64,000 nt of DNA, from the IMG/VR virus record IMGVR_UViG_3300022555_000003, positions 160,001 through 224,000 of that record; one strand, given 5' to 3'. The notes beneath the pieces were generated by a model. It saw nothing but the letters and a program-made list of their open reading frames with translations, was not told where the DNA came from and searched no databases. The number at the start of each line of letters is the position of its first letter. Position 1 is the stretch's first letter. Both the position numbers and the translations under genes were made by a program. Below, piece after piece: positions 5,903-28,231 of this stretch. The DNA is from a virus (taxonomy: Duplodnaviria > Caudoviricetes).

Positions 5903-6760
5903 TTAGGTTCCCCACTTGTTTCCAAATAATGATAATTGTAGCCTTGGACTAAAATGATAGCCACGTTTCATAGCTTCTGTAGCTACATTGAATTCGTTAC
6001 TTTCATAAACATTTGTTACGCCACCAACTGGCATTACATATACTGGTCCATTAAAGTCATGATGTCGATATTCTTTAACAGCTTCATCAACTTCATCAAA
6101 GTGAGCAGGACAATCAACTACAAACTTAAGATAAGTAAATCCATACTGTTCATAACTGCTAACAATACTTGGTTGGATCGCAGCTTCCTTTGTTTCGCCA
6201 CTTGCACTTAACTTTGGACTTACTGAAAAGGTAAAATTAAGATGTCTGGTAAATATGAAACGCGACAAATCATTTGAGATCCATTTTGTTCCGTTCGTTT
6301 CAAACGTAACATTTCTAAGCCCTTTACTTTGCAAAATATCTAATAGCTCTGGATAAGCATCTTGCCACCCTAGTAATGGTTCTCCACCAGTAATTACTAG
6401 ATGGATGTCATTTCCATTAGGTTGAATCCACTTTTTATTTGGACAAAGGTCAGTAAGTTGATCTGCTAATTTATCTACACTAATAGTTGGGCTCAAATGT
6501 TTAAACTCAGAATAGACTGCTGGGTACGAATCACATCCTGTTTTAACAAGTGGCAAATCTTCTAAAACTTTGAATTGATCAATATTCTTAATAACTTCAG
6601 CTACTTCAGCATTATATTTGCCAACTGTTGGTACTGTAAGTCCAAAATCTTTACATCTAAAATTACATCCAAATGTTCGAAGAAAAATTGATAAATAACC
6701 AACAAAACGTCCCTCTGATTGATAAGAGGTGAATGTCTCACTTACTTTAATTTTATGCAT
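5903..6760 (-). CDS. queE: 7-carboxy-7-deazaguanine synthase (radical SAM)
   Basis: SETFTSYQSEG, FLRTFGCNFRC...CDS, VITGGEPLL, FETNGT, SVSPKL, LKFVV, FSPRLQ. Confidence 0.9.
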   Translation of the reverse strand: MHKIKVSETFTSYQSEGRFVGYLSIFLRTFGCNFRCKDFGLTVPTVGKYNAEVAEVIKNIDQFKVLEDLPLVKTGCDSYPAVYSEFKHLSPTISVDKLADQLTDLCPNKKWIQPNGNDIHLVITGGEPLLGWQDAYPELLDILQSKGLRNVTFETNGTKWISNDLSRFIFTRHLNFTFSVSPKLSASGETKEAAIQPSIVSSYEQYGFTYLKFVVDCPAHFDEVDEAVKEYRHHDFNGPVYVMPVGGVTNVYESNEFNVATEAMKRGYHFSPRLQLSLFGNKWGT

Positions 6761-6766
6761 ACTTAT

Positions 6767-6795
6767 ATTATATAATATTTTTTGATTTATATCAA
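6767..6795 (-). promoter_or_regulatory. sigma70-like promoter, 6 nt upstream of queE ATG
   Basis: TTGATA-17 nt-TATAAT on minus strand. Confidence 0.75.
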
Positions 6796-7533
6796 GTGAA
6801 TAATATCCCACAATCCAGTATCATGCTCAACCAAAACTGTACAACTTTCAACAAAGTCTCCACTATTTAAATAATCTATTCCATTAATAGATTTAATTTC
6901 TGGTGAGTGAACATGACCAACTATAATTCCTGCATATCCCTTACTTTTGCAATATTCTGATAAGCAACTTTCAAACTTAACCAAGTGATTAGCTGCCCGC
7001 TTAATATTTTTTTTGACAAACTTGCTAAAGCTCCAATGTTTAAGTCCAATTTTGTGACGTGCAATATTCAACGCACTATTACATTCGATTAAGACATCAT
7101 ATCCAATTGAACCAAATTTTGATAACCAAGGAGCCACTCTTGTTATTCCATCAAACAAATCACCGTGTGTTACAATATAACTGTGACCGTCAACGCAAAT
7201 GTGTTCAACTTCATTACAAATTGTTATTCCACCAAAATTTACAGAATCTTTAATAATTGGTCTCAAAAATTCATCATGATTACCAGTTATATAAAAAACT
7301 TTTGTTCCTTGCTTACTTTTTTTAAGAATTTGTTTGATAACATCATTATATGATTCTTTCCAACGCCATTTACGTTTTAAAGCCCAACCATCTAATATAT
7401 CACCATTAAGATAAAGAAACTCACACGTACTATGTTTCAAAAAATCAGCAGCTTCATTTGGATGACAATGTTTTGAGCCCAAATGTAAGTCACTCATAAC
7501 TACAGTTTTATAATGTGTTTTTTCTTTGTGCAT
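6787..7533 (-). CDS. metallophosphoesterase, LpxH / UDP-2,3-diacylglucosamine hydrolase-like
   Basis: SDLHLG, LNGDILDGW, GNHDE, THGD, GHVH, NSGDFVESCT. Confidence 0.8.
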   Translation of the reverse strand: MHKEKTHYKTVVMSDLHLGSKHCHPNEAADFLKHSTCEFLYLNGDILDGWALKRKWRWKESYNDVIKQILKKSKQGTKVFYITGNHDEFLRPIIKDSVNFGGITICNEVEHICVDGHSYIVTHGDLFDGITRVAPWLSKFGSIGYDVLIECNSALNIARHKIGLKHWSFSKFVKKNIKRAANHLVKFESCLSEYCKSKGYAGIIVGHVHSPEIKSINGIDYLNSGDFVESCTVLVEHDTGLWDIIHLI

Positions 7534-7893: not shown

Positions 7894-8070
7894 TTACTCT
7901 TCATCAGTCTGATCAACTACTTTGTATACAACCGAAAATAATAACAATATAGTCAATACTATAGCCAATATTCCAGCTGTCATGGTTTCAAAGAATGTTG
8001 TGGACAATATCATAAAGAATAAAATCCAAATTATCCAACTTCGATATTTTACTATAACATGTTCTAGCAT
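7894..8070 (-). CDS. small membrane protein (58 aa)
   Basis: Manual translation MLEHVIVKYRSWIIWILFFMIL...VVDQTDEE; start overlaps the queD end. Confidence 0.55.
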   Translation of the reverse strand: MLEHVIVKYRSWIIWILFFMILSTTFFETMTAGILAIVLTILLLFSVVYKVVDQTDEE

Positions 8071-8615
8071 GAAAATTCACTTCGACTCTTAGTTGATTCC
8101 CACCAAGTAATATTTGATACCTTTACATTGAGGTCTTTCATCTTTTCTTGAACAATATCAGCTAGCCACTTGCTCAAATTTTCACTCGTTGGAACAAAGT
8201 CTACAATAAAGAAACTATCAAGTAATTCCTTTTCTTCTGTAGTATTTACAGTAGCCATATCTAAATATAACGTATCTGGTACACGACCAGCAGTCATTAA
8301 TCTACCTGGCACAATAACTGGCATAGTTGAAACTGATCCAACTAATCTATTATACAAAGGATCGTGACTATCGATAATAAACTTATGGTCAATATATGTG
8401 TTTAAGAATTCCTTTAACCAATTTAAATTATTAAAATCAACAACCATACCATTTGTTAAAGTATCTGATGTCATAGTGACTGTTACCTTAACTTCATGAC
8501 CGTGAATATGTCTACATTTACATACTGTAGTCTTAGCATATTCGGAAGATAGTGATTGACTCCAGACTCTATGCCCCATACAAAAATCAAAATCTTTAGA
8601 AATTGTATATCCCAT
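8064..8615 (-). CDS. queD: 6-carboxytetrahydropterin synthase
   Basis: FDFCMGHR, CRHIHGH, GMVVDF, IDHKF, PTSENL, WWESTKS (T-fold PTPS motifs). Confidence 0.88.
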   Translation of the reverse strand: MGYTISKDFDFCMGHRVWSQSLSSEYAKTTVCKCRHIHGHEVKVTVTMTSDTLTNGMVVDFNNLNWLKEFLNTYIDHKFIIDSHDPLYNRLVGSVSTMPVIVPGRLMTAGRVPDTLYLDMATVNTTEEKELLDSFFIVDFVPTSENLSKWLADIVQEKMKDLNVKVSNITWWESTKSRSEFSC

Positions 8616-8909: not shown

Positions 8910-9299
8910 CTACTTTTTTGCCCAACCTATACCTTTTCCACTTGCAGCAGCACGTCTTAAAATTGAAGTTGGATAACATTGATAGTAGTTCGAAATCACA
9001 TCAGCCATCCGTTTTGCACCTACTGGATTGTGGCTATGAACAATTGGAACTTCTTCGGGCCAAATATCATTTTCTTCCATCCATAAAACTATGTCGTAGC
9101 CTGTTTTTTCAGTAAATGGATCATACATATTTCTATATTGTAAAAATGATAAATCATGATCAATAGAACATTGTCTAACTTTATTAGTCTTTAAAATTTC
9201 TATTGCTTCATCATAATTCTTTGCCCATACCCAACCAATGTATGGGCACTCTCTTACATCATCAATCCACAAGTCAACATAATTTTTTTCGTTATCCAT
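8910..9299 (-). CDS. stand-alone receiver-like domain (cyclic-phosphate-processing receiver type)
   Basis: LWIDDVR, SIDHDL, KTGYD, VHSHNPVGAKRM pattern. Confidence 0.7.
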   Translation of the reverse strand: MDNEKNYVDLWIDDVRECPYIGWVWAKNYDEAIEILKTNKVRQCSIDHDLSFLQYRNMYDPFTEKTGYDIVLWMEENDIWPEEVPIVHSHNPVGAKRMADVISNYYQCYPTSILRRAAASGKGIGWAKK

Positions 9300-9639
9300 T
9301 TTGCTCGTATAGTTCAACATTGTTAATACCCGTAATTATTTCAGGTTCAACAGGTTGATCACTTAACAATCTATCTGCATGAGTTTTTAATACTTTAGAT
9401 AATCTGATAGTTTCTTTTGGAGACAATAAAATTTCATCAAACGCACCATAACGACATTGATGTCCAAAAATATATTTGAGTGAAATCCAAAGTCTCTCAT
9501 ATATCGTTCGACTTTTTGTCAGATGAATACTTAAATAAACATATCTATCATCAACCAAATCTTCGTTATCATCAAAACTTTGAATAATAAATTGATGTTC
9601 AGTACAGCTACAATCACAAACAAATAAATCTCTACTCAT
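9292..9639 (-). CDS. hypothetical protein with CxCxxxxH motif
   Basis: CDCSCTEH near N-terminus; tiled ORF. Confidence 0.65.
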   Translation of the reverse strand: MSRDLFVCDCSCTEHQFIIQSFDDNEDLVDDRYVYLSIHLTKSRTIYERLWISLKYIFGHQCRYGAFDEILLSPKETIRLSKVLKTHADRLLSDQPVEPEIITGINNVELYEQNG

Positions 9640-11362: not shown

Positions 11363-12040
11363 TTACGGCATCCTACTTATAATTGACATAAATTCTTGTT
11401 TCAAAGAATTATCTTCGCGTTTAAATACGCCTCTCATAACACTTGTTGTCATGGCTGAATCATGTTCCTTGACCCCCCGAGCTGTCATACAACCATGTTC
11501 AGCTTGAATTAATATTGCAACGCCTTCTGCTTTTGTTTCTGTTTCAATTGCATCAGCAATTTGAATAGTCATCTCTTCTTGAATCTGCGGCCTGCTTGCA
11601 ACCCAATTTACAATTCGATTAAACTTACTTAGCCCAATAACAGTTTTACCAGGAAAAATGCCAATATAGGCCTTACCAGTAATATTTTGCATATGATGAG
11701 CGCAAGTTGATCTAATAGATACAGGCCCTGCAACCATAATTCCTTCATATGAATTTATATTAGGAAAAGATGTTACTGCTGGCATTGGTTGATATCTACC
11801 AGAAAAGATTTCATTAACCATCATCTTTGCAACACGTCTAGCAGTATCTTGGGTATTATGATCCTTTTCGGTATCAATAACTAAACTCTTCAATACTTCT
11901 TCATACTTCTGAGTAACTTCACTAATTAGTAATTCTATTTCATCTTGATTAACATATTTACTAATGTTATGATTTGCAAGGTAAGAATCACCGCTTTCAA
12001 TAATTCTTCGTCTAATTACGTCGCTTATATTATCCATCAT
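11363..12040 (-). CDS. folE: GTP cyclohydrolase I
   Basis: DTARRVAKM, STCAHHM, GLSKFNR, QIQEE, AEHGCMTARG. Confidence 0.95.
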   Translation of the reverse strand: MMDNISDVIRRRIIESGDSYLANHNISKYVNQDEIELLISEVTQKYEEVLKSLVIDTEKDHNTQDTARRVAKMMVNEIFSGRYQPMPAVTSFPNINSYEGIMVAGPVSIRSTCAHHMQNITGKAYIGIFPGKTVIGLSKFNRIVNWVASRPQIQEEMTIQIADAIETETKAEGVAILIQAEHGCMTARGVKEHDSAMTTSVMRGVFKREDNSLKQEFMSIISRMP

Positions 12041-12063: not shown

Positions 12064-12399
12064 TTAAGTCAAATGAGACTTTCCAGATATTACATCATTA
12101 GTGCATGAAACTTGCAATGCTAATACAATTGGAATCATCCAACCACCCATGCACACAAAATATATCAACATGGCTATCCAATAGCAATTACTAAACCACA
12201 CATACGGAATCTGTTGAATAGATGAACATGCTGTGCCAAATGATACTATACAAATAGGAATATTACATAGCCAAATAAATAAATTTCCGCACCACATAAG
12301 TGCAAATGGCATGAAAGCCGCTAATGCTAATACAACTACTGTTAACCCGCAGTTAACGCTAAACAATATTCTGTTTGCTGTATTCAAAAATTCTTTCAT
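12064..12399 (-). CDS. membrane protein
   Basis: Predominantly hydrophobic, Cys/Trp-rich, 111 aa. Confidence 0.6.
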   Translation of the reverse strand: MKEFLNTANRILFSVNCGLTVVVLALAAFMPFALMWCGNLFIWLCNIPICIVSFGTACSSIQQIPYVWFSNCYWIAMLIYFVCMGGWMIPIVLALQVSCTNDVISGKSHLT

Positions 12400-13472
12400 T
12401 TTAGATTCTCCAATAATTTAAATGCGTGGAAAAACTTTTTATATGACGAATTCATATAACTACTAACATATGGTAAAAATGTGTCATAATATACAATACG
12501 TTCACGTATCATGCATTTGATAATTTCTCTGTTTTCCATATAAGATTCCCAGTTTGTTGTCCAATTTGATGGATACAAAAATTTAGGATGATTCTTAAAA
12601 ATTTCTGTATAGCTCAATCTATTTGGAGCAAAAGGAATTGCTTTAACAATTGGTCCTTCAGCACAAGTTGTGATACCTAGTGTTTCTTGCAGATTGGCAC
12701 TAAACAATACTTTCGATTCTCCAAGAATTTTATGATATTCTTTCTTAGACAATTGCTTATCTTGACAAATAACAAATTCATATTCTGGTAATTCTTTCGC
12801 TAGATCCCTAAAAATTTCTGGCTGTTTTTCTACTGAGACACGATGTGGAAATACAACTAAATTTCGTTTTGTAACTCCTTCAATATCATTCGAAATATCA
12901 CGTTTCAAATTTTCAAAAGGCCAACCAGTCTGGATAATCTTTTTAGTTTTTAGTACATGCTGTAATGTTGCTCCAGATCCGTACAATAGATTATCCCAAA
13001 ACATATTAATATGAAATTCTGTTGCAAAATAATTATGATCAATTGCATTATATAAACTTATTTCGAAGTTTGTTAACCAATCTTGTTTACCTAATCTACC
13101 CAACCCATCATTTTTATCGTAATTTCCGGCATGCCAAAGTCCATGGATCTTAACTGGGGTGTTTAAAAGGGAACTCATATACTTTAAACTAATGATTGTT
13201 GGATTCCAAGCATCAGTAAATAAGAATTGGTCGCCTTCTTTAATAATTTTATCAGAAAATAATTTTGCTATTTTTTTACATTGTTCGGCTTTAAAAGTGT
13301 TTGTTCCAGCAAAATCTAAGAACATTCCTGGTGTAGGAATAGTTCCAGTTAACAATTCTCCTTTGATTATCATATTCTCAATACCATTTTCTTTTAAAAG
13401 TTTAGGAATATGTGTTGCCCACTGACAAGTATAACGTGTTGGTATATTTTCAAGTTCTACAATATAAAGCAT
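12396..13472 (-). CDS. GT-B fold glycosyltransferase
   Basis: FPHRVSVEKQPEIF, ANLQETLGI (ExxG-type motif), APNRLSYTE. Confidence 0.75.
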   Translation of the reverse strand: MLYIVELENIPTRYTCQWATHIPKLLKENGIENMIIKGELLTGTIPTPGMFLDFAGTNTFKAEQCKKIAKLFSDKIIKEGDQFLFTDAWNPTIISLKYMSSLLNTPVKIHGLWHAGNYDKNDGLGRLGKQDWLTNFEISLYNAIDHNYFATEFHINMFWDNLLYGSGATLQHVLKTKKIIQTGWPFENLKRDISNDIEGVTKRNLVVFPHRVSVEKQPEIFRDLAKELPEYEFVICQDKQLSKKEYHKILGESKVLFSANLQETLGITTCAEGPIVKAIPFAPNRLSYTEIFKNHPKFLYPSNWTTNWESYMENREIIKCMIRERIVYYDTFLPYVSSYMNSSYKKFFHAFKLLENLK

Positions 13473-13477
13473 AATTA

Positions 13478-13506
13478 ATTATAACAAACTCTTATATTAA
13501 AGTCAA
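13478..13506 (-). promoter_or_regulatory. sigma70-like promoter, 5 nt upstream of glycosyltransferase ATG
   Basis: TTGACT-17 nt-TATAAT-TAATT-ATG. Confidence 0.8.
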
Positions 13507-13511
13507 ATTTA

Positions 13512-13589
13512 GATAAATAAAAATGCGTGATAAGACAGACCATTAATCTGTCTTATCACTAAACAGTTCAATCTACAAAGGAGATCGAC
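13512..13589 (+). promoter_or_regulatory. late promoter plus two hairpins ahead of the GIY-YIG gene
   Basis: GATAAATA at 13512; perfect 13-bp stem 13527-13559; ATCT/AGAT stem with ACAAAGG loop over the SD. Confidence 0.7.
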
Positions 13590-14516
13590 ATGTCTACTCG
13601 TATTTATTATACAGTATATAAAACTACAAATTTATTAAATGGAAAATATTATATTGGAAAACACAAAACAACCACCCCTAATGATTATTATTTAGGATCC
13701 GGTCTTGCATTAAAGAATGCAGTTAAAAAATATGGAAAGGATCAATTTGTTAAAAAAGTTATATGTATTTGTGAAACAGACGAATATGCTTATCTAATTG
13801 AAAGCAAATTAGTTACTAAATTAATAATAAAAGATGAAAATTGTTATAATATAGTATGTGGCGGGGGAGGGTTATATAATTCAGAAAAAGCGCACCAAAC
13901 TAGAATAGAAAAATATAACGGTAAATATTTTTCTGAAGACGGAACAAAATCAATGAAAAGCTTTACAAGTGCATATACTAAAGCTAATAACCCAATGCAT
14001 AAATTAATAGTACAGAAAAAATATTACGATTCAATAGCACAAAAGATTGGATATTCTGATCATCAAGAATATGTTATGGCAGTGAAACAAGCATTTGAAC
14101 AATGCAAAACTATAAAAACAACATCTGACTTTACTGGGCACCCACAACAAACCATTTTACATTTATTATTAAAACATTTTGGAAAAGACTATATTGATGA
14201 TATCAGAAAAGAAGGATTTAAAGAAGCTAGGCAAAGACAAACAAACAATTTTATATTGTCACAATTTTGTAGATCTAAAAAAGATGGAAAACTTAATCAT
14301 AATGCGTATATTTGGTTAGGAAAATCTCCCGAAAATAATATTTTTATTATATTTGGAAAACGTATTCAATTCTGCAGAGATAACAAAGTTAACACTTCGC
14401 TGGACCCAACTAAAGACCATTTAAGAAAAGGATGGACTTTTCAAAAAATATGCAAAGTGAAAGATTATTCACAACAACTTATCAGTAAATACGAGAATAT
14501 AACAATTTATGATTAA
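13590..14516 (+). CDS. free-standing GIY-YIG (Seg-like) homing endonuclease
   Basis: YTVYKTTNLLNGKYYIGKH, YLGSG, E...CYN; inserted antisense within the operon. Confidence 0.88.
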   Translation: MSTRIYYTVYKTTNLLNGKYYIGKHKTTTPNDYYLGSGLALKNAVKKYGKDQFVKKVICICETDEYAYLIESKLVTKLIIKDENCYNIVCGGGGLYNSEKAHQTRIEKYNGKYFSEDGTKSMKSFTSAYTKANNPMHKLIVQKKYYDSIAQKIGYSDHQEYVMAVKQAFEQCKTIKTTSDFTGHPQQTILHLLLKHFGKDYIDDIRKEGFKEARQRQTNNFILSQFCRSKKDGKLNHNAYIWLGKSPENNIFIIFGKRIQFCRDNKVNTSLDPTKDHLRKGWTFQKICKVKDYSQQLISKYENITIYD

Positions 14517-14917
14517 TACCATTTGTAAATAACCTCACACCCATTTTCATCATCCTCACTTACGTTAATGTGAACTTCTCGCTGTGGGTATCTTCCAGCT
14601 ATATTTAAGTATAGCATATCAGCAATCATTTCACAACTACTGTTATTTAGATTTAATATTCCTGTGGTATATAATTTTTCACACCACCGTTTAAATTGGA
14701 TAAATTCGATATCTCTATTGTCATGAAATACTTCAATCTTTACTTTAAAATGAAAAATATGTCTGTGCGGATGTTGTAAAAAACTTACGTCATCAAGATT
14801 TGGATCAAAACCAGCAGCTGGATAACAATGGATTCCTTCTTTTTGAAAAGTAATCCAAATGAATTTCTTAGAATTACAAATATTACTTTCTACTTTGATA
14901 CGTTCATCCATTGTCAT
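14513..14917 (-). CDS. QueD-like T-fold protein with LxxxHRHxF signature (DpdL-like)
   Basis: FLQHPHRHIFHFKV, RDIEFI, SCEMIA, VSEDDENG. Confidence 0.7.
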   Translation of the reverse strand: MTMDERIKVESNICNSKKFIWITFQKEGIHCYPAAGFDPNLDDVSFLQHPHRHIFHFKVKIEVFHDNRDIEFIQFKRWCEKLYTTGILNLNNSSCEMIADMLYLNIAGRYPQREVHINVSEDDENGCEVIYKWY

Positions 14918-15423
14918 TAAATTTTAGAGTCTCCCTTGTACATTTCCCAATGGGTGAAATTTGAGTATGATTTAAGATCACTTAATTGATGTACCCAAAC
15001 TCCAGCGTTCGTTGCTCCCCAAGAGGTATCATCTAATTTAATTGTTGTATTATAATTGAAATTTTTAATATTTGGCAACTTAACACTTAACATAAGTACA
15101 AACTTATCATGTCCAATTATTCCTTGATAAGCAGTGGAAAGTTCAGTTGCATATTTAACATCTGAGTCTAGTGTTACCCAAAAATTATTATCAAGAAGTA
15201 CTTTGATAGTATCAAGCCAGTCTAAAAATGAATTATTTACAGCCATGAAACTTTGATTTGCTCCAAGATAAATATGCTTGCACTTGTGCTTTTTTGCAGC
15301 ATCAATCATCTCTACGCTATCAATTAATCCAGTTACAAATAATGTCTTTTTTCCTAAACAAATTGTCCGCTCAACTTCTTCACCAATAAAAAATTTTGAA
15401 ACTTGCCGTTGATCTTTGTCCAT
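14917..15423 (-). CDS. hypothetical protein in deazaguanine cluster
   Basis: 168 aa, coupled to the DpdL-like gene, with its own promoter. Confidence 0.7.
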   Translation of the reverse strand: MDKDQRQVSKFFIGEEVERTICLGKKTLFVTGLIDSVEMIDAAKKHKCKHIYLGANQSFMAVNNSFLDWLDTIKVLLDNNFWVTLDSDVKYATELSTAYQGIIGHDKFVLMLSVKLPNIKNFNYNTTIKLDDTSWGATNAGVWVHQLSDLKSYSNFTHWEMYKGDSKI

Positions 15424-15428
15424 AACTA

Positions 15429-15457
15429 ATTATAACAAATATAGTTATTAAAGTCAA
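15429..15457 (-). promoter_or_regulatory. sigma70-like promoter, 5 nt upstream of ATG
   Basis: TTGACT-17 nt-TATAAT-TAGTT-ATG. Confidence 0.8.
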
Positions 15458-15458
15458 A

Positions 15459-16355
15459 TCACTCTGACCAAGTAATATATCCCCTATTGTAATTTGGTTG
15501 GCGATTCTTTCCGTCTTCAAATGCTAATTCCCATTCTGTATTACGATCATAACTTCTTGTCCAAAAAGCATTAACATTCAATCTACCTGATTCAATATAT
15601 TTTACTGCTTTGAGCATACAAGAATGAAATTTGCTAGATCTTGGACTTGGAAAAACAATTGTAGCTGCTTTCCATAATAAATTGCTAAAGTCAGTAGTTA
15701 CTTGCTTTTGAGATCCCATTACAACTAATGCATTGTCATTAAGAATATCTTTAGAAAATACATCGTCTCTTCCACTCAAATCAATAACAATATCGTACTT
15801 TCCTCTAGGATCTGACAATAATTTATTTCCCCAAAGTTGTTTATTTGACGTTCCAACTACATCAATCAATCCTCTAATATTGTCAAGAATAGTAGCATGA
15901 GCAACCCGTGCTAAAAATCCACTTCCAAGAATTAAAATTCTAGTTGTTAATTTATCACGTTTAATAAATTCATGATGGGATTGTAAAATTAAATTTATTC
16001 CACATGCAACTGGTTCAATAATATATTTTGGTTCAGCAGCAGGAACTTTAACAAAATTATCAACATTAACATTATAAAAATCTGCATATGCTGGCTCGCC
16101 TCTTGTAGCAACATAATCGCCAATTTTATACATGGATGGAATATTTACGCCAACTTCTATAATTTGTCCTAGACCTTCATGTCCTTGCATTGTTAATGGA
16201 AGTGTTTTGAATTTTCCAGTCATCATGTCGATATCACTTCTACAGACACCAGTCATGATGGACTTTACTTTTATCTCATCATATTTAATTTCTGGACAAC
16301 TCCAATCGGTTTTCTCAAAAAACTTGCCTGATCCATCAGTGTGCAATAATCTCAT
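15459..16355 (-). CDS. Zn-dependent medium-chain dehydrogenase (sugar/polyol type)
   Basis: GVCRSD, GHEGLG, EPVAC, ILGSGFLA. Confidence 0.8.
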   Translation of the reverse strand: MRLLHTDGSGKFFEKTDWSCPEIKYDEIKVKSIMTGVCRSDIDMMTGKFKTLPLTMQGHEGLGQIIEVGVNIPSMYKIGDYVATRGEPAYADFYNVNVDNFVKVPAAEPKYIIEPVACGINLILQSHHEFIKRDKLTTRILILGSGFLARVAHATILDNIRGLIDVVGTSNKQLWGNKLLSDPRGKYDIVIDLSGRDDVFSKDILNDNALVVMGSQKQVTTDFSNLLWKAATIVFPSPRSSKFHSCMLKAVKYIESGRLNVNAFWTRSYDRNTEWELAFEDGKNRQPNYNRGYITWSE

Positions 16356-17260
16356 TAGTTATCCCCTAACTGTATTTGGTCATGAATCCAAAGATCTTCA
16401 ATCAGATTATAATTCCAATATCTTTCTATATCTTTCAAACAATAGGTATGATTCACCATAGTTAAGTAGGCAGATTCTGGACACAAGCCAAACTCATACT
16501 TTATGACTTCGCCATTATCAAAAGTGAATACAATATTTAATTCAGATGGCTTTAATGTTCTCCAATTTGCAGTAAGTTTTATACTTTTATTAGCCCATGT
16601 ATAATGTAATACAGCTTCATCATCTACATCATACACTCCATCCTTTTTAACTGTACCATAATTTGTATTTGTAACATCAGATAATTGCCAATTTTGTTTA
16701 GTTCGTTTATATGATAAATCAGCATTACCAAAATGTGTCTTAGTTAAATTAGTAAACCAACTCAGTAAGTGAGGCATTAAATCTCTACTAACTCCACCCC
16801 ACGCCAACGAATTAGTTGTAAACCAAGATCCTGGGTTTGGAACTCTATCTGTATTACACCAATTAAATTCTACCCTGATTGCATTTGTAAATAAATGTTT
16901 GAGTAAATTTTTATCATTAATTACAATGTCTCGAAATTGATTATTCTTTACCATTGACCATCTAGTATTTGGAAAGTTAGTCACTAGTGAAGACCATTCT
17001 GTAGATGTTTTGAGACCAGGTTTTTCAATAAAAACAACATCAGGTTCATATTTTGCTACAGTTTTAGCAATATCACCATGAGTGTAATTTGGTGTACAAA
17101 TGTTTACAGTATCAAAATGATTAGATTCTAAAGCTTTTTCTAGATCATCAAAATCAGCTTTAACACATGGATCCACAGTTACAACAGTGTGTCCATATTC
17201 TGATAATACTTTTTTGTATAATTGACCAAATCCCATTCCAATAACTAAACAATTTAACAT
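16355..17260 (-). CDS. Gfo/Idh/MocA-family oxidoreductase
   Basis: VIGMGFG, ICTPNYTH, FIEKPG, GGVSRDLMPHLL. Confidence 0.82.
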   Translation of the reverse strand: MLNCLVIGMGFGQLYKKVLSEYGHTVVTVDPCVKADFDDLEKALESNHFDTVNICTPNYTHGDIAKTVAKYEPDVVFIEKPGLKTSTEWSSLVTNFPNTRWSMVKNNQFRDIVINDKNLLKHLFTNAIRVEFNWCNTDRVPNPGSWFTTNSLAWGGVSRDLMPHLLSWFTNLTKTHFGNADLSYKRTKQNWQLSDVTNTNYGTVKKDGVYDVDDEAVLHYTWANKSIKLTANWRTLKPSELNIVFTFDNGEVIKYEFGLCPESAYLTMVNHTYCLKDIERYWNYNLIEDLWIHDQIQLGDN

Positions 17261-17296: not shown

Positions 17297-18748
17297 TTAT
17301 TTGAAAAATTTGTTGAATTGTGTAGTCGCGTTAAATGTTTTTTTTCCTATGTGACCAGACGGACCCATAATCTGTAAATAAAATTTGTCGTACTTATCGA
17401 TTATTGCTAACGCTGAAGTAAGCGATTTTGCTTCAAATGCTTTATTTACAATATCTCTCCATTTAATAATTTGATGTGATTCTTCCACTAACATCTTTGG
17501 AATAAACCCTTGATCATACATTTCGTTGGCTCGTTGCACTGCCGAAATATGAAGATAAACATTATGAGACATTAACAATGTGTATGCAAATGAATCCCAA
17601 CTTGTTTTACCTTCCTTACCATTCTTATTTAGGTCGCCTTTTGCATAGTAACAAATATCACTTATTTTTAATTTTGAACTAATGGGTGTTTCTTCAAAAT
17701 GCTTATAGATTTTATCTTGTAATACAGCATCTCTAAAACTTCTATTGTCAGTTGAATATTTTTTGTCGTCTGCGCTTGGTCCCATTTTATACGACCACTT
17801 GCCTCTATCTTTGAGACTAATTTCATAATATACTTGTCCATTAGCAGTAGCAAGAAATGGACTTGCACAATCATAACTTATAGTCAAATTTGGATTATGA
17901 TTTCTTCTAATTGCCCGTTGTAAGTCTGTAAACATTACAGAAAATTCAAGTTTAGAAGTACCAAGGAAATGAATCCAATCATGTATTCCTGGTTCAAGCA
18001 ATCCTTCCCATTTTAAATACATTAGTCTACGCAAAATTAGATGTGGATCAGCTCTATTCTGACCACCAAATGCATACCCATTAAAATGACCTGGATACTT
18101 AGATGGATTACAATAATCTTTTACTTCATCATACCAACTATCTGCTTCTGTATGATTTTCACCTTGTAAAACATTTAAAAATTTACAGTTACCATTTCTA
18201 TTATTTATGAAATAGTCGTTGTTAATTTTAGTTGCCGCTAATGCTCCAGCATAAGAAGTGATGCCGGTATTTTTCTTTCCTTCTTCGTTACGACATACCC
18301 ACGCTGGAATATCTAACGTAATAGAGTAATCAGCATTAGTATCCATCCAAGACAATACTTGGCTACGTTTCTTTTGCGCGATAGGACAATTAGGATTTGA
18401 CCAATCTGCTGGCCACTTACCACCTGCAATTTGGAATCCGCCTGAATCTGTTAAAATAAATGAATTCTGCCTGTCGCGGCGAGTAATCATTCTTTCTTTT
18501 GGATCATTTGCTGTAATATCGATATTAGCATGACCCGCTGAATATAATGACCACTTATATTGAAAATATCCTAATGCTGCATTTAGATAGTTCATACCTT
18601 CTACACCATTAAAAAATCCATTAGGAATTCTCGACTTTTCCACATACTCTTCAACTTGTTGTTTGCCAACGTAAGTTGAAAAGAATGTGGAAAGAGCTGG
18701 TGTAAAGATAGCAAAATCTTTTTGACTAGCTGTTAAGTTTGTGTTCAT
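17297..18748 (-). CDS. tRNA-guanine transglycosylase-like (TGT/DpdA family) enzyme
   Basis: ILTDSGGFQ, ITLDIP, LNVLQG, GYAFGG, IHFLG, ISYDCASP. Confidence 0.78.
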   Translation of the reverse strand: MNTNLTASQKDFAIFTPALSTFFSTYVGKQQVEEYVEKSRIPNGFFNGVEGMNYLNAALGYFQYKWSLYSAGHANIDITANDPKERMITRRDRQNSFILTDSGGFQIAGGKWPADWSNPNCPIAQKKRSQVLSWMDTNADYSITLDIPAWVCRNEEGKKNTGITSYAGALAATKINNDYFINNRNGNCKFLNVLQGENHTEADSWYDEVKDYCNPSKYPGHFNGYAFGGQNRADPHLILRRLMYLKWEGLLEPGIHDWIHFLGTSKLEFSVMFTDLQRAIRRNHNPNLTISYDCASPFLATANGQVYYEISLKDRGKWSYKMGPSADDKKYSTDNRSFRDAVLQDKIYKHFEETPISSKLKISDICYYAKGDLNKNGKEGKTSWDSFAYTLLMSHNVYLHISAVQRANEMYDQGFIPKMLVEESHQIIKWRDIVNKAFEAKSLTSALAIIDKYDKFYLQIMGPSGHIGKKTFNATTQFNKFFK

Positions 18749-19472: not shown

Positions 19473-20684
19473 CTATTTAAAAAATTTTGAAAAATTACTT
19501 TTTGTCTGTCTACTTGTTTCTATATTTAGATTTAAAATACCAACTAAATTTTCAATCTTGTTATCAATTGCAGATGAAGACATTGCATCATCATCAAATG
19601 GCAATTCCTTAAACCATTGTGGAAGTCTGTGTTCGTCTATTGGATATGCAACACTTGTATAACCCATTGGATTATTTCTAAGTTTACATACAATAACTTT
19701 CATACCATCAAATATTTCTAATGCCATATTATCGTGATTGAGTTGCCGTAATACATTCCAATTCAATGAAGCCCTAACATGACCAGGTAAATTAGATTTC
19801 TTCTTTGCCTCAAGCTCTCTAAACTTTGTTAAATTATTAACACGTTTTGGCATACCTTTTTCCCAAGCTGGCAAATTTTGAAATACTTCTTTGAAGTTTA
19901 AAATCTTTTCTCGAACTAATGAAAAATCTACTTCAGTTAAGATATCCATTAAAATATCACGTAAGAAGTCTTGAACAATCTTTGGTGTATCTGCTCGCTT
20001 GAGATCTAATCCCATAGCTTTCATTTTACCAGGCGACCCATCTATATCAAGACGTTTGCCATCTTTATAATACATCAAAATAGCATAACGTTTCTTAGTG
20101 ATAAATAATCCAGTTTTGCCAACTAACTCAAGCCCACATCGAATTATTTTACCATTTTGTTCTGGAGAATGAAATGCATCAAAGCAAGCTTCTGGAAAAG
20201 TTTCATTAACCTGATTAGCTAATTCTTCGTATAACTTAATACAAGTCTCTTTATCCCATTCCATTTTATCATTTTCAACATCATCTTTTATTAATGGCCA
20301 AATTGAAAAAATATCTGAATCTGTATCTCCGTATATTACACCATCTCCAACATAGTCAAACTTTCCCGTCAAACAATTATTAATATAAGAAGCCATATGT
20401 CTAACAATAACACGTCCAGACAATGTCGTACTTTGTCCAACACGCTTATCATAAAATCGACAGCCAGGATTTAAAAAAGAACCATAAGCTGAATTTAAAC
20501 TATTCTTAGATACTAATTGTTTCTGATCATAACTAAAAATAGTTTGTTTAACTTCGTCTAGATTCTTATGAAAAATTTTGCCATCACGAATTTCAAGATC
20601 ATTTTCTAAAATAAACAACTTTAACTCTTCAACATTACCAGAGTCTATCAAATTTTGTAATTTCTGAAAGTCAATATTAATCAT
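19473..20684 (-). CDS. polB: family B DNA polymerase, C-terminal subunit
   Basis: KNSLNSAYG (motif B), YGDTDS (motif C), KKRYA, MGLDLKRADTP. Confidence 0.92.
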   Translation of the reverse strand: MINIDFQKLQNLIDSGNVEELKLFILENDLEIRDGKIFHKNLDEVKQTIFSYDQKQLVSKNSLNSAYGSFLNPGCRFYDKRVGQSTTLSGRVIVRHMASYINNCLTGKFDYVGDGVIYGDTDSDIFSIWPLIKDDVENDKMEWDKETCIKLYEELANQVNETFPEACFDAFHSPEQNGKIIRCGLELVGKTGLFITKKRYAILMYYKDGKRLDIDGSPGKMKAMGLDLKRADTPKIVQDFLRDILMDILTEVDFSLVREKILNFKEVFQNLPAWEKGMPKRVNNLTKFRELEAKKKSNLPGHVRASLNWNVLRQLNHDNMALEIFDGMKVIVCKLRNNPMGYTSVAYPIDEHRLPQWFKELPFDDDAMSSSAIDNKIENLVGILNLNIETSRQTKSNFSKFFK

Positions 20685-20709
20685 TAAGTCTTATTACTAT
20701 TATAGCAGG

Positions 20710-22362
20710 TCATACTAATTTATTCAACAGTTCCTTAGGAATTTTAATTCCATATTGTAAGTCGGAATATTGTCCCTTATATTTTTGATGTTCTTTTCTA
20801 CTTGTATACCATTTTCTAAATAACCCAGGAATAATTCCTTCTGCTGCTGTTGAAAAAATTGTTCCATTAGCACTTAACGTCCATGGTTTATTATTTGTCC
20901 ATATTAAGTTATACAGTTGGGCAGGTGACATTTCATCACTTTTACCAGTTTCCCAATCTACAATAATAACAGAACCAATATCTTGCTTCATCACTAATTG
21001 ATATTCTAGTGATCCAAACTGACCTTCCCAAGCATTGGCAAAAGTTAAACCTTCCTTCATTTTTTGTTTTATAAATGCATCTGTCATAACTGGTCTAATC
21101 TGTCCAATAATAGTTTCAGGACTCATATTTAACATTCTAAATGAGCTAGGATACAGACTATTAATATCAGTTACTCCTACATATTTATGAAACCCTTTCT
21201 TTGGATATGCAACATATGCACCTGCAACGCCATCGTGTTTTTCTACGCCATCTTCGTCTTCATCTTCAAGATCTTTGGGTTCATGTTTTCTGTTTGGAAC
21301 AACTAATTGTTTATCGTGACATTCATTAATTGCAGCTTGTTCTGTTTGTAAAACTGTTCCTTTAACTGTAGGAAGTAATACTGTATTAGTATGAGCAAGA
21401 TTGTTTGCTAATCCAATATAATGTAATTTTCTATCTAATAGGTCAAGAAGATTAACATCTTGTCTGTTATATTCAATAAACTTTTTGAAATCATTATTAT
21501 ATAACTGAGCCAATGTTCCATCATATTCAGTCTTAGATCCTAATTTTTCAAACTCTGCAATCGCATTTAAACTATAACTATGATGTTCACCAGGAGTAAA
21601 CTTTTTGTACAGTGCCATATAATCTAAATGAATTCGTCCTATTAGATCATATGATTCTTTTTCAACACCATATCTAGTATAAGAAAACTTCTTTGGATAC
21701 TGATTCCATAAACACAATCTACTTGTATCATTTTTTGATAATATCTTGCATATCCTATTCACTATATAGGGAATATCGTATCCCTCGCTGTTCCACCCGC
21801 TTAGAATATCACAATCATCTATCAAAGTTAAAAAAGTATTTAACAGATCAACTTCAGTCTCAAAAACAAAAGTATTACTAAACTGATTAGCGATTTCTTG
21901 ACCTTGCTCAAATGTTAAAGTTTTTGGAGGTAAAGCTAGAGTAACAAGTTCATCTAACCAATTCAAATAAACTGTAACCGCAGTTATTGGCATAAAAGCA
22001 TCTTCAGGACTGCTAAATCCACCTTTTGGGTCTGAGTCGACTTCTATATCAAAAAATCCAATATTCAACTTAGGAGAAGGTAAGTGCCTATAATTCTCGT
22101 ATAGGCACTGGAATGTCCAATTTAGATCACTTTCCCAAATAACTTTATTGCTGTGGATCCTAAGTTCTTTTTGAAACTCTTTAAAATTGTTGGTTTTAAA
22201 TTTACTTACAGAAGTATTATATATTGTTCTATACTTACCTTTATTATCAGTAAAATAAAATTCGTAATTAGCCAAATAATCTTTATAGATCCGCTGGCCA
22301 TTTACCCTCTCAACAACATATACTTTATTATCCTGCTTTGAAAATAATGCGTCCACATACAT
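20710..22362 (-). CDS. polB: family B DNA polymerase, N-terminal subunit (3'-5' exonuclease plus motif A)
   Basis: FFDIEV, GWNSEGYDIPY, YNRQD, GAYV, DINSLYPS. Confidence 0.92.
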   Translation of the reverse strand: MYVDALFSKQDNKVYVVERVNGQRIYKDYLANYEFYFTDNKGKYRTIYNTSVSKFKTNNFKEFQKELRIHSNKVIWESDLNWTFQCLYENYRHLPSPKLNIGFFDIEVDSDPKGGFSSPEDAFMPITAVTVYLNWLDELVTLALPPKTLTFEQGQEIANQFSNTFVFETEVDLLNTFLTLIDDCDILSGWNSEGYDIPYIVNRICKILSKNDTSRLCLWNQYPKKFSYTRYGVEKESYDLIGRIHLDYMALYKKFTPGEHHSYSLNAIAEFEKLGSKTEYDGTLAQLYNNDFKKFIEYNRQDVNLLDLLDRKLHYIGLANNLAHTNTVLLPTVKGTVLQTEQAAINECHDKQLVVPNRKHEPKDLEDEDEDGVEKHDGVAGAYVAYPKKGFHKYVGVTDINSLYPSSFRMLNMSPETIIGQIRPVMTDAFIKQKMKEGLTFANAWEGQFGSLEYQLVMKQDIGSVIIVDWETGKSDEMSPAQLYNLIWTNNKPWTLSANGTIFSTAAEGIIPGLFRKWYTSRKEHQKYKGQYSDLQYGIKIPKELLNKLV

Positions 22363-23155: not shown

Positions 23156-23188
23156 GAAATTGGAGCGTATAAATTACGCTCCATTTTC
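23156..23188. terminator. bidirectional intrinsic terminator between convergent genes
   Basis: GAAAT-TGGAGCGTA-TAAAT-TACGCTCCA-TTTTC. Confidence 0.75.
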
Positions 23189-23953
23189 ATGAGTGAGGAA
23201 ATATTTAAATATTTCTTGTTGATCTTTTCTTATTTTCAATAAATCGTCTGGTAAAGTAAACCACTTAGTATTACCAGTTTCAAAGTCTGTATTAGAAAAG
23301 TTATTAGGATCAAATATTTCACAAGCAAATACATGCAAATCGTATTGTTTATACTTAAAAATATTTATTGGCTCAACTTGTTTGACATTTGAAAGAACTA
23401 ATCCAACTTCTTCTTGTGCTTCTTTCAATGCATTATTTATTGGGCTGTAACTTGGTTCAATTCCACCTTTTGCTAATTGAAATTTTGTTCCACCAAATGA
23501 AGGATCAGACGGTTTCATTAGTAATACTTTTAATTTACCATTATCATAGTAATATGGAATCATCCCCGACTTATCTCTTTGTTTAGTTGAAATATCATGT
23601 AAAAACTTTATAGCTTGTAGCTTATTAGGAAATTCATGAAATAAATTAGTCTTTTCGTCTGTCAGATTGAAAGCATACCCACCACTAAGTGGATGCGAAG
23701 CAATATGTTTAATAATATTAAGAATATTTTTAGTAGTAGATTTAAATTCGTATTCAATTCTGGTTCCTGGAGTAAAGTTAACTCCACCCAAATAAGTAGC
23801 AAATCGTACCGCACCATTGTTCATTTCTAGATCAATATCTGGAACTAGATCTCTGTGTGCTGCTGGATAGTATCCTGAAAATCTTTCAATTAGTTTGCCG
23901 CTGGCTGTTATTAATCCAAAATATGTTTGATGTTCAACTTCATTTAATCTCAT
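23174..23953 (-). CDS. Nudix hydrolase with extra N-terminal domain and Glu-leader
   Basis: KGGIEPSYSPINNALKEAQEEVGL Nudix box; starts MRLNEVE. Confidence 0.82.
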   Translation of the reverse strand: MRLNEVEHQTYFGLITASGKLIERFSGYYPAAHRDLVPDIDLEMNNGAVRFATYLGGVNFTPGTRIEYEFKSTTKNILNIIKHIASHPLSGGYAFNLTDEKTNLFHEFPNKLQAIKFLHDISTKQRDKSGMIPYYYDNGKLKVLLMKPSDPSFGGTKFQLAKGGIEPSYSPINNALKEAQEEVGLVLSNVKQVEPINIFKYKQYDLHVFACEIFDPNNFSNTDFETGNTKWFTLPDDLLKIRKDQQEIFKYFLTHENGA

Positions 23954-25398
23954 TGTTTTAGGTTCCTAATCATATTTTTAGCCAATACTTCTGCATCATG
24001 TCTTGTAAAATTTGGATTCTTAAGAGTAGCATCAAGTATTTTATTTTTGATATCGCCAACTAGTCTACCTTTTGCACCCAACGCCATAATTTCATTACCA
24101 TCCAATATACTCTTAGTATTAAGGATTTGATTGATATCCATTTGTTGGATACGCTTTCTGATCATATTGATTTGTTCTGGCAATCCGTGACCTACAGCAT
24201 GAGAATTATTGTCTGCATTGATTACGTCCAACACATCCTCAAGATTGTGACTAACTCTGTAGATAAACTTTCTAAGAGTTGAATCCTTCATAAGTGTTCC
24301 ATCTGGACCAGCGCTCTTCAATCCCATATGATTACTGATAATAATACAAACTTTATCAATAACTTCAGTTGGGTATTTTAGTCTACGCAAAGCAACTTTT
24401 GCAATGTCTGCTCCAATACTTTCGTGACCAATAAATTGCACTTTTCCATCTTTTTCTGTTCTCGTTGAAGATTTTCCACAATCGTGAAATAGTGCCGCTA
24501 GTCTCTTAATAAGGTCTGGTGAACTATTGTCTAGAACTGTTAGAGTGTGTCCAAGTGCATCTTGGTTATGAAACTTGTTTTGCTTTAGCTTATCTAGTGC
24601 TTTAAGCTCAGGCAAAATTACGTCCATAATGCCAGTAATTCTAAATAGTTCAAATGCTTTACCAGGCTTATTAAGAACAAGAATTTTACTGATCTCATCA
24701 TTGATTCGTTCTGCACTGATACTCTTAAGAGAGGGAGCAGCTTTTTTAATTGATTTAATGACATTAAGTGGAAGAGTAAATCCATACTTAATTGCAAATC
24801 GAACAGCACGAAGAATACGAAGAGGATCTTCTGAAAATATTAGTTCTGGCTTTCCGGTTGTATTGAGTACTCCATTTTTAAGATCTTTCAAACCACGTCC
24901 ACTCAAATCAAGTATCTCACCAGTTTGTAGATTTTGAATTAGAGAATTTATTGTGAAATCTCTGCGTAGTACATCATCCTTCAACGTTCCAGCCACTACA
25001 GCTGGCTTACGACTTCCTGGAGTATATTTTTCTGTCCTGGGTGCTACAAACTCGACATCCATTGGTCCCGAATTTGTTTTGATTGCAAGTTTTGCAGTAA
25101 AATATGTTGGGAACAATACAGGATTGCTATCTTGCTTAAAAATACCAAGCTTTTTAGCAATAAATGTGGCTGCATCAAGCCCAGCAGTAGGTCCACCATC
25201 AACAACAATATCGATATCTTTTGAATTTTTACCCAAAAGTGTATCACGCACAAATCCTCCAGCAATAAATAGCCTTCCGTCGAATTCAGATCCTTCGATT
25301 GCATTTTTCAGAAGTTCAATTGTTTCGTCGGTTTGTGATGATTCCATTATCATACTACTATTATACACTCTTTGGTTGATAATTTCAAATATTTTCAT
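23950..25398 (-). CDS. cca: CCA-adding tRNA nucleotidyltransferase with HD domain
   Basis: AGGFVRD, KDIDI, DDVLRRDFTINS, EDPLRILRAVRF, ERINDE, HDCGK; starts MKIFEI. Confidence 0.92.
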   Translation of the reverse strand: MKIFEIINQRVYNSSMIMESSQTDETIELLKNAIEGSEFDGRLFIAGGFVRDTLLGKNSKDIDIVVDGGPTAGLDAATFIAKKLGIFKQDSNPVLFPTYFTAKLAIKTNSGPMDVEFVAPRTEKYTPGSRKPAVVAGTLKDDVLRRDFTINSLIQNLQTGEILDLSGRGLKDLKNGVLNTTGKPELIFSEDPLRILRAVRFAIKYGFTLPLNVIKSIKKAAPSLKSISAERINDEISKILVLNKPGKAFELFRITGIMDVILPELKALDKLKQNKFHNQDALGHTLTVLDNSSPDLIKRLAALFHDCGKSSTRTEKDGKVQFIGHESIGADIAKVALRRLKYPTEVIDKVCIIISNHMGLKSAGPDGTLMKDSTLRKFIYRVSHNLEDVLDVINADNNSHAVGHGLPEQINMIRKRIQQMDINQILNTKSILDGNEIMALGAKGRLVGDIKNKILDATLKNPNFTRHDAEVLAKNMIRNLKQ

Positions 25399-27397: not shown

Positions 27398-28198
27398 ATG
27401 AACGTCATCAACATTTCAGTTTTACTTCCAACCCGCGGGCGCAAAGAACCGTTGTTAAAATGTTTAGATAGCTTACTTGAAAATGCTAAAGATAATACCA
27501 ATATTGAGGTATTATTAGGCGTAGACACTGATGATACTGAAGTAATAGAATACGTTGAAACTGTGATAATACCAAAATATTATCAAGTAACAATGTATTT
27601 GTTCAAGCAACTAGGCTATGAAAAATTAAATATGTATTATAATACTCTAGCTAATTTAGCTTACGGTAAGTGGCTATTTGTATTCAATGACGATGTTATA
27701 TTAGAAACACAAGACTGGGACAATGTTATTTACAAGTATGAATCTCATCCAATGCCACTGCTTCGTGTCAACGTTAGAAATATGGACCATCCATTTGCAC
27801 TATTTCCAATTATTAAAAAAGAAATGATTGAAGTTATGGGACAACTTAGCCCATATAGCCACATTGATCGATTTTTATATAACTGTGCAACAAATATTTG
27901 TAATGGAATTGTAATCGATATCCCTGTAGATGTAATCCACGATAGATTTGATATAACTGGTGCAAATAACGACGAAACATTTAAAAATAGTATTTCAACA
28001 TATGCTAAGACTGAAGGTAATCCGCTTGATCCAGCAAATGATGACTATCCAACTCAACACCAATATATGCTAATGTTAGTCAATCGTCTACGCCAGCATA
28101 TAAACAACAAATATAACTATGCTATCCCGCTTATTGATTTGAGTAAGCCAGTACAAGTGATTAAAAAAACTACTGCAAGTCACGGTTGTGCAAAATAA
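27398..28198 (+). CDS. GT-A (GT2-like) glycosyltransferase
   Basis: SVLLPTRGR, VDTDD, FNDD (DxD-type). Confidence 0.8.
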   Translation: MNVINISVLLPTRGRKEPLLKCLDSLLENAKDNTNIEVLLGVDTDDTEVIEYVETVIIPKYYQVTMYLFKQLGYEKLNMYYNTLANLAYGKWLFVFNDDVILETQDWDNVIYKYESHPMPLLRVNVRNMDHPFALFPIIKKEMIEVMGQLSPYSHIDRFLYNCATNICNGIVIDIPVDVIHDRFDITGANNDETFKNSISTYAKTEGNPLDPANDDYPTQHQYMLMLVNRLRQHINNKYNYAIPLIDLSKPVQVIKKTTASHGCAK

Positions 28199-28231
28199 TT
28201 GTGCTATAATAGTAGTATAAGGAAGTAATAA

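Follow-up and report, generated by a model that had tools for sequence, protein, structure and literature searches.

Does a phage that encodes a glycosyltransferase (GT) among its 7-deazaguanine genes attach a sugar to the modified base of its DNA? The question is raised by a locus within positions 160,001 to 224,000 of the IMG/VR virus record IMGVR_UViG_3300022555_000003, a stretch of 64,000 nt (the window) of a 242-kb record with about 31% G+C and a CheckV completeness of 74%. There a GT and two oxidoreductases, one of the Gfo/Idh/MocA family (Gfo) and one Zn-dependent medium-chain dehydrogenase (Zn-MDR), are found together with genes for FolE, QueD, QueE, the QueD paralogue DpdL and a TGT-like protein. 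The original prediction from the letters of this DNA was that a remodelled sugar could be transferred onto a deazaguanine; its gene order and open reading frame (ORF) positions around 12396–17260 were borne out, the GT was confirmed as real by a GT-B/GT4 model with invariant donor residues, and the linkage of the GT to dpd genes in relatives, against which the prediction had asked to be judged, proved very strong and leaves it standing. Our comparison of sequences and structure models suggests, at a probability of roughly 55%, that the module yields a glycosylated 7-deazaguanine-type DNA base whose sugar tailoring would be lineage-specific.

This reading starts from the company that the GT keeps. 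The window proteins were searched by tblastn against the 80 best GT-carrying IMG/VR loci (the scope of all counts out of 80 unless stated otherwise), in which many gene misses are contig ends. DpdL was found in 72/80 loci, a 168-amino-acid (aa) protein in 69/80, the TGT-like protein in 67/80, FolE in 54/80, QueE in 51/80, a phosphoribosyltransferase (PRT)-like protein in 39/80, and Gfo and Zn-MDR in 20/80 each. The usual order was PolB, clamp, TGT-like, (Gfo, Zn-MDR), 168-aa, DpdL, (82-aa), GT, and then FolE, PRT and QueE. Among cultured phages, a clear GT match was accompanied by DpdL in 18/18 records, mostly within 0–4 kb, and these records comprise six lineages: ACP17 (168aa-TGT-GT-DpdL-QueE), Phosso (DpdL-GT-x-FolE), the family of phage PA5oct (TGT-GT-DpdL), BUDD/X1 (GT-TGT-DpdL-QueE in BUDD, GT 1.5 kb from DpdL in X1), BCSR5 and cyanophage BUCT-ZZ01, the last two with both GT and DpdL present. 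A further metagenomic type combined FolE, a TGT-like gene, a PAPS-reductase-like gene, DpdL, a small protein and a Glycos_transf_1 GT with 27% identity to that of the window.

The same partnership extends to bacterial chromosomes. In alphaproteobacteria (Methylobacterium, Pelagibacterium, Devosia, Ochrobactrum, Sulfitobacter, Shimia and others; L098–L119) the GT adjoins a TGT-like gene in 18/18 loci, with DpdL also present in 9/18, and FolE, QueD and QueE were not seen within the 9-kb flanks of these operons. A Methylobacterium locus (L111:6587-10065) forms a compact TGT-x-DpdL-GT operon in a prophage-like element with capsid, serine recombinase, VapE and endonuclease I genes. The co-location persists at 24–50% identity across the six cultured lineages, metagenomic phages and prophages with otherwise unrelated neighbours, and no clear GT-family member was found that stood apart from both TGT-like and DpdL genes. 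Recurrence in many relatives, and in unrelated lineages too, puts the arrangement of the module, by this sequence comparison, far from chance. The dependence runs one way, since DpdL occurs without a GT in phiST (whose DNA is proven to be fully 2'-deoxy-7-deazaguanosine, dDG) and in RHph_I1_18, whereas clear GTs come with DpdL or TGT-like genes, and the GT thus looks like a downstream tailoring add-on acting on the pathway product.

The GT itself looks like an active enzyme, because its model has a confident GT-B/GT4 fold and the residues that would bind the donor are invariant. The AF2 model (mean pLDDT 92.5) consists of two Rossmann-like domains; its best structural match was sucrose-phosphate synthase (6kih; Z 24.3, 317 residues, root-mean-square deviation 3.5), further GT4 matches included BshA (Z 23.1) and PimA (Z 21.5), and Foldseek returned 356 matches at E ≤ 1e-3, with GT4 enzymes on top (E 6e-9 to 1e-7). 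The GT4 donor site is defined by an R/K pair and paired glutamates (EX7E) in the C-terminal domain. The corresponding R211-x4-K216, E263 and E272 were invariant in 34 homologues, with eight residues between the glutamates versus seven in EX7E. The window GT had zero Pfam matches, including Glycos_transf_1, and a profile search by sequence against solved structures returned nothing for the GT, the TGT-like protein or the 168-aa protein; a relative 27% identical to the GT (E 9e-27) carries PF00534 Glycos_transf_1. The family is large, with more than 6,695 metagenome sequence clusters at E ≤ 1e-5 and at least 590 confirmed IMG/VR stretches. Fusions of the GT in proteins above 628 aa were looked for and not found, which is weak evidence, and an apparent DpdL-GT read-through on a short contig (P0160) was left out of the fusion count. 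The isoelectric point (pI) was uninformative on DNA binding, since both the GT and the TGT-like protein are basic in the window and acidic in relatives.

The neighbouring enzymes point to a route that would end with a deazaguanine in DNA. FolE, QueD, QueE and the TGT-like protein are encoded together with DpdL and without QueC; neither QueC nor a canonical (Pfam) TGT was found in the 242-kb record searched (74% complete), and because QueC is missing the pathway cannot proceed to preQ0. The DpdL signature LxxxHRHxF, which takes the place of CxxxHGH in QueD and goes with the loss of the catalytic Cys of QueD (PMC10516641), is present as LQHPHRHIF at residues 47–55 of the 134-aa protein. The protein matches phrog_17812 at 3e-34, shows 34% identity over 81% of the query (tblastn, E 5e-7) to gp040/CGPG_00067 of phiST and 56–61% to the DpdL proteins of ACP17 (56%) and Phosso, and on these sequence grounds it is DpdL.

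The 483-aa TGT-like protein is accepted, from its motifs and model-based searches, as a TGT/DpdA-superfamily enzyme that is not assignable to DpdA3. Its aspartates D101 (DSGGFQ), D146 (LDIP) and D293 (YDCASP..ANG) were invariant in 22 sequences, and hhalign placed them onto the FDCVMPTRNARNG stretch of E. coli Tgt and onto ACP17 DpdA at low probability, the values against single sequences being 2–18%. In the ESM Atlas, a viral TGT-like cluster matched in the structure search with TM 0.81 by row (0.56 by query), and the DpdA cluster PF23859 in the features search with 0.89; the protein is also 35% identical to a 540-aa protein of the PA5oct family. It had no Pfam, NCBIfam or PDB profile match, the structural zinc site CxCxxC...H was not found in it, and the alignment held no invariant Cys cluster. 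Compared with phiST DpdA3 (259 aa), hhalign gave a probability of 18% over only 78 columns, and tblastn returned no phiST or Campylobacter phage match.

According to the pathway proposed here, GTP would be converted into 7-carboxy-7-deazaguanine (CDG) by FolE, QueD and QueE, in keeping with the established functions of these families, and CDG would be turned into 7-deazaguanine by DpdL, a published and unvalidated proposal. The TGT-like protein could then exchange guanine in phage DNA for 7-deazaguanine, which is backed by the resistance of the DNA of PA5oct, a cultured relative, to enzymes cutting at G-containing sites (PMC12191111). The GT4-type enzyme, as its linkage suggests, may move a sugar from a nucleotide sugar (candidates are UDP-GlcNAc, UDP-glucose or a uronic acid) onto the base, whether still free or already inserted into DNA, and a candidate acceptor is the exocyclic 2-amino group, for which huimycin and the dapiramicins offer a precedent. 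Gfo and Zn-MDR, present in this phage and roughly one in four of its relatives, might then oxidise and reduce a sugar hydroxyl to give an epimer or a keto-sugar. The resulting sugar-bearing purine analogue in virion DNA would shield G-containing sites from host nucleases. Since a thymidylate-synthase-type hydroxymethylase (PF00303) was not found in the 242-kb record (74% complete), the classical hydroxymethyl-pyrimidine acceptors are unlikely. There is about an even chance that the virion DNA of this phage and of the PA5oct family, ACP17, BUDD/X1, BCSR5, BUCT-ZZ01 and Phosso carries a glycosylated 7-deazaguanine whose sugar is diversified by interchangeable enzymes (Gfo with Zn-MDR, UGDH-like, LmbE-like or a second GT).

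Other sugar enzymes do occupy the same place in relatives. Homologues of the UGDH-like dehydrogenase were found in 28/80 loci by ORF clustering (29 by tblastn), in ten of them directly downstream of the GT. The window has a plus-strand sugar operon at 27398-30134 with a GT2, the short UGDH-like protein, an 82-aa ORF and an SDR epimerase/dehydratase, which could supply the donor sugar of the GT-B enzyme or serve another glycan; the UGDH-like enzyme and its SDR neighbour are possible sugar-donor enzymes for the GT. Long forms of DpdL are another case, as 17/38 carry an N-terminal domain with both LmbE/PIG-L zinc motifs. PF02585 was the top match in 8/10 tested, above the cut-off in one, and the best PDB match of the domain was TT1542 at a non-significant E of 0.22. 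These fusions (17 among P0126–P0159; L091:9001-9819) lie in modules with a PAPS-reductase-like PP-loop protein, a TGT-like gene and a GT, the GT being present in both fusion contexts examined. BCSR5 has a free PIG-L/LmbE-type gene between DpdL and GT, and BUCT-ZZ01 has a second GT. The LmbE/PIG-L family mostly deacetylates GlcNAc conjugates. Given the LmbE-like domains in relatives and the GlcNAc-transferring BshA/MshA among the structural matches of the GT, our guess by analogy is an N-acetylhexosamine-type sugar in some lineages. "DegT-like" ORFs of 170–200 aa adjoining the GT in 10 loci match just 77 positions of an aminotransferase profile and were not used as evidence.

Short UGDH-like proteins without the C-terminal UDP-binding domain also occur in Bacillus phage SP-15, whose DNA is hypermodified, in the Campylobacter CP220 group and in cyanophages, a recurrence that hints at a wider role in DNA-modification chemistry. 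The DNA of the CP220 group carries dADG (PMC10516641).

The two oxidoreductases of the window look active by their sequences. Gfo matched PF01408 at 35.2 bits against a cut-off of 24 (E 2e-8), with its C-terminal domain below the cut-off (23.1 versus 27); the motifs GxGxG (GMGxGQ), EKP (EKPG) and SRDLxPH were conserved in 14 relatives, and the nearest PDB entries by sequence were the sugar C3 dehydrogenases DgpA (7xr9) and levoglucosan dehydrogenase (6a3f), at E of only ~5e-3. Zn-MDR matched ADH_N at 37.4 bits against a cut-off of 23.5 (E 3e-9), its cofactor domain being undetected by Pfam; Cys38, His59-Glu60, Cys118 and GSGF were conserved, and weak NCBIfam matches included IolM and threonine dehydrogenase. 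The two genes are always paired, directly upstream of the 168-aa gene, and occur in 19/67 loci that span the interval (~28%). In the PA5oct family the Gfo-MDR-168aa trio is 26 kb away from the TGT-GT-DpdL block; the PAC2 copies of that family (L004:6001-7769) retain SRDxxPH and the C-terminal motifs and may be inactive or repurposed. The idea of two sugar oxidoreductases in the cluster, as put forward in the original prediction, was thus upheld in part: the motifs are kept and the weak nearest relatives are sugar/cyclitol dehydrogenases, but with ~28% of close relatives carrying it the pair does not belong to the conserved core.

Several observations weigh against a glycosylated 7-deazaguanine. 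Gfo and Zn-MDR are missing from most relatives, and in the PA5oct family Gfo lacks GxGxG and EKP and Zn-MDR lacks Cys38. Because few relatives carry the pair, and the PA5oct copies are distant and motif-depleted, it is best described on sequence grounds as accessory to the system and outside its core, with a sugar as its plausible substrate. The nearest structural neighbours of the GT (sucrose-phosphate synthase, BshA and PimA; Z 21–24) act on small molecules, and the DNA-base transferases rank below them (T4 alpha-GT 1y6f, Z 18.1; phage HY126 9iqz, Z 18.4). 7-Deazaguanine has no hydroxyl, which leaves it without an obvious acceptor atom. The 80 IMG/VR loci are mutual close relatives and not independent samples. 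DpdL is a proposed CDG decarboxylase whose activity could not be reconstituted by the authors of the proposal, and their paper, the only one found that mentions DpdL, does not discuss a GT (PMC10516641). The glycosylated base is a prediction from genes, and no report of a glycosylated or glucosylated deazaguanine in DNA was found in open-access papers and preprints. Finally, DpdL is a T-fold protein thought to act on free bases, and its fusion to a deacetylase in some relatives hints that a soluble intermediate or free base may be where the sugar chemistry occurs, ahead of insertion.

A step further, the GT might glycosylate a soluble intermediate, be it a pterin, CDG or deazaguanine as the free base, whose glycoside is not carried into DNA. 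The sugar would then serve as a passing handle or mark a metabolite of its own, and plain dDG or dCDG would be left in the DNA. The small-molecule GT4 enzymes around the GT, among them tetrahydrobiopterin glucosyltransferases (5zer, Z 19.4; 9v0l in Foldseek), would fit such an activity, as would the free-base type of the DpdL T-fold and the LmbE-like deacetylase fused in 17 proteins, for mycothiol and bacillithiol are likewise made by a GT4 enzyme and then an LmbE-type deacetylase. Nevertheless, bacterial prophages keep the GT most tightly with the TGT-like enzyme and have no FolE, QueD or QueE close by, and this pairing points to the DNA end of the pathway. DpdL also lacks the catalytic Cys of QueD, and a soluble glycoside would be of little gain to a phage, so that this alternative appears unlikely.

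Rather unlikely, too, is that the DNA has plain 7-deazaguanine as in phiST and that the GT has a different target, be it some other DNA base, a protein of virion or host, or a glycan of the host envelope, its place in the operon reflecting shared expression timing. phiST does reach 100% dDG without a GT, and the separate GT2-UGDH-SDR operon (27.4–30.1 kb) shows that the phage has other glycan chemistry. Shared timing would nevertheless have to account for a co-location that holds at 24–50% identity in six cultured lineages, metagenomic phages and prophages, with no clear GT relative found away from TGT-like or DpdL genes, and the record has no hydroxymethylase.

For the oxidoreductases only, a different substrate could be considered, in that Gfo and Zn-MDR might act on a side chain of the deazapurine or pterin, for example a C7 carbonyl or alcohol, instead of a sugar. 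Interconversion of aldehydes and alcohols is common among Zn-MDR enzymes, and the pair always abuts the 168-aa protein, which is faintly QueE-like in shape. Reduction of the CDG carboxylate, however, needs an activating enzyme, and none was seen here; the nearest solved relatives and NCBIfam matches of Gfo are sugar/cyclitol dehydrogenases, and plainly sugar-related enzymes stand at the same place in other lineages, which makes a side-chain substrate quite improbable. That tRNA is the target of the TGT-like enzyme and the GT, with a product resembling glycosylated queuosine such as eukaryotic manQ and galQ, is most improbable, since the module lies between DNA polymerase/clamp and nucleotide-metabolism genes, PA5oct DNA itself is resistant at G-containing sites and DpdL-type phages have fully substituted DNA, even though TGT enzymes classically act on tRNA and eukaryotic tRNA queuosine is glycosylated, with one of the transferases in GT4.

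The features of the window are collected in Table 1; on the minus strand, the family-B DNA polymerase (two ORFs) and a 238-aa clamp-like gene come first, followed by the TGT-like gene and the rest of the module.

Table 1. Genes of the putative base-modification module and associated sugar genes, with positions in the window
Feature	Position	Strand	Basis
TGT/DpdA-superfamily protein, 483 aa, presumed DNA guanine transglycosylase	17297-18748	-	motifs, structure search
Gfo/Idh/MocA NAD(P) oxidoreductase, 301 aa, accessory	16355-17260	-	PF01408
Zn-dependent medium-chain dehydrogenase (Zn-MDR), 298 aa, partner of Gfo	15459-16355	-	ADH_N
168-aa protein without assigned function, kept with module in clade	14917-15423	-	relatives
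DpdL, 134 aa, QueD paralogue	14513-14917	-	phrog_17812, motif
GIY-YIG homing endonuclease, mobile insert outside pathway	13590-14516	+	phrog_314
GT-B (GT4-like) glycosyltransferase (GT), 358 aa	12396-13472	-	AF2 model, structural matches
Hydrophobic membrane protein, 111 aa	12064-12399	-	translation
FolE, GTP cyclohydrolase I	11363-12040	-	PF01227, 6e-50; found in 54/80 loci
Phosphoribosyltransferase (PRT)-like protein, 154 aa	10898-11362	-	phrog_8995, 1e-7
QueD (CPH4 synthase)	8064-8615	-	PF01242, 2e-26
QueE-like radical SAM enzyme (CDG synthase)	5903-6811	-	weak Radical_SAM match; 31% identity to annotated PA5oct-family QueE
Short UGDH-like nucleotide-sugar dehydrogenase	28232-28999	+	PF00984 3e-19, PF03721 3e-15
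SDR nucleotide-sugar epimerase/dehydratase, adjoins UGDH-like gene	29241-30134	+	PF01370, 2e-39

The 168-aa protein also occurs in ACP17 and the PA5oct family, and its residues E16, E18, D86, K129, D131 and D132 are invariant. Its AF2 model (mean pLDDT 85.7) reached Z 6.7 with its best PDB match, Z 5.5–6.2 with QueE chains and TM 0.55–0.61 with Atlas QueE clusters; the Atlas features search gave no usable match and no profile similarity to QueE was found. A relationship to QueE was rejected, the likeness being one of shape only (Z ~6, TM ~0.6) without profile support. A 201-aa gene in the same slot of a Methylobacterium prophage is unrelated to it. The GIY-YIG endonuclease (phrog_314 at 1e-30, IYY..YYIG motif) has homologues in the same DpdL/GT slot of three other loci (L006, L025 and L105), as homing would predict, and in 57/80 relatives this slot holds a basic 82-aa protein (median pI 9.4) that is absent from the window. 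The 111-aa membrane protein, with three to four hydrophobic stretches in its translation, had matches in 0/80 related loci, so it is not conserved with the module. Half of the loci, the PA5oct family and BUCT-ZZ01 have the PRT-like gene with the module; the encoded protein has a degenerate PRPP motif and might salvage the guanine that leaves the DNA or form a deazapurine nucleotide.

Further genes nearby were observed in passing. The family-B DNA polymerase (19473-22362, minus strand) is encoded by ORFs of 550 aa and 403 aa that are 25 bases apart, for which a real gene split, a frameshift and a faulty assembly are all conceivable; in relatives it is a single ORF of ~887 aa, and in the PA5oct family a homing endonuclease interrupts the gene. 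An enzyme of the CCA-adding/poly(A) polymerase type that carries an HD domain (23174-25398, minus strand) adjoins a NUDIX protein and lies immediately upstream of the polymerase region. Two more minus-strand genes, for a protein with a cREC_REC (cyclic-phosphate processing receiver) domain (8910-9320) and for a metallophosphoesterase (6787-7533), lie in the interval from the PRT-like gene to QueE and had zero matches across the 80 related loci.

To our knowledge, eight 7-deazaguanine derivatives are known in phage DNA, none of them sugar-bearing, and the known glycosylated DNA bases are pyrimidines. If the glycosylated 7-deazaguanine proposed here is real, it would be, as far as is known, the first sugar-bearing purine-type base in any DNA and a new chemical class. 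Sugars that vary among lineages would fit an arms race in which modification-dependent nucleases and DNA glycosylases are the opponents. This jumbo phage turns up in metagenomes of freshwater and lakes from four studies, 9/10 runs being possibly this DNA's own source; all of these runs are stored as contigs, and no RNA run is listed. A chemistry widespread in environmental jumbo phages would affect DNA sequencing, restriction and CRISPR resistance, and visibility to END nucleases and deazaguanine-specific glycosylases. PA5oct is a candidate therapeutic phage with a chemically undefined modified G, and the prediction is testable in cultured phages. The enzymes could also serve as DNA-labelling tools.

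Among known systems, the MshA/MshB and BshA/BshB pairs resemble the module in the likeness of BshA to the GT (Z 23.1) and in the LmbE/PIG-L-like domain of relatives, whereas the window has no LmbE-like gene, and the acceptors of the mycothiol and bacillithiol GTs are malate or inositol phosphate. Two kinds of DNA-base transferase, the alpha- and beta-glucosyltransferases of T4 with 5-hydroxymethylcytosine as substrate and the arabinosyltransferase of HY126/RB69/DLP3 with 5-hydroxycytosine, are GT-B enzymes of lytic phages that decorate a non-canonical base, as the window GT would (PMC13326640); however, their acceptors are hydroxyl-bearing pyrimidines, no sequence similarity to them was found, and generic GT4 enzymes match the GT better. 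Huimycin carries GlcNAc on a 7-deazaguanine-derived base made with FolE/QueD/QueE homologues, its GT HuiG uses UDP-GlcNAc, and in huimycin and dapiramicin the sugar is N-linked to the 2-amino group of a 7-deazapurine, the candidate acceptor here (PMC7439116). Unlike the window, these are soluble actinomycete metabolites made from preQ0 with QueC present and no transglycosylase, and they are not in nucleic acid.

The closest characterized chemistry is that of phiST, whose DpdL/DpdA3 system makes dDG (Cui, Hutinet et al., NAR 2023, PMC10516641). Like the window, phiST combines FolE, QueD and QueE without QueC, a DpdL with LxxxHRHxF and a distant TGT-like enzyme beside replication genes; it differs in having no GT, 168-aa protein or oxidoreductases and in a DpdA3 of 259 aa compared with 483 aa, so that relative to phiST the window module adds the PRT-like and sugar enzymes. 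With the family of the Pseudomonas jumbo phage PA5oct (Wroclawvirus), the window has in common the TGT-like protein (35% identity), the GT (43%), DpdL (53%), the 168-aa protein (43%), Gfo (29%) and Zn-MDR (37%), together with PRT and QueE.

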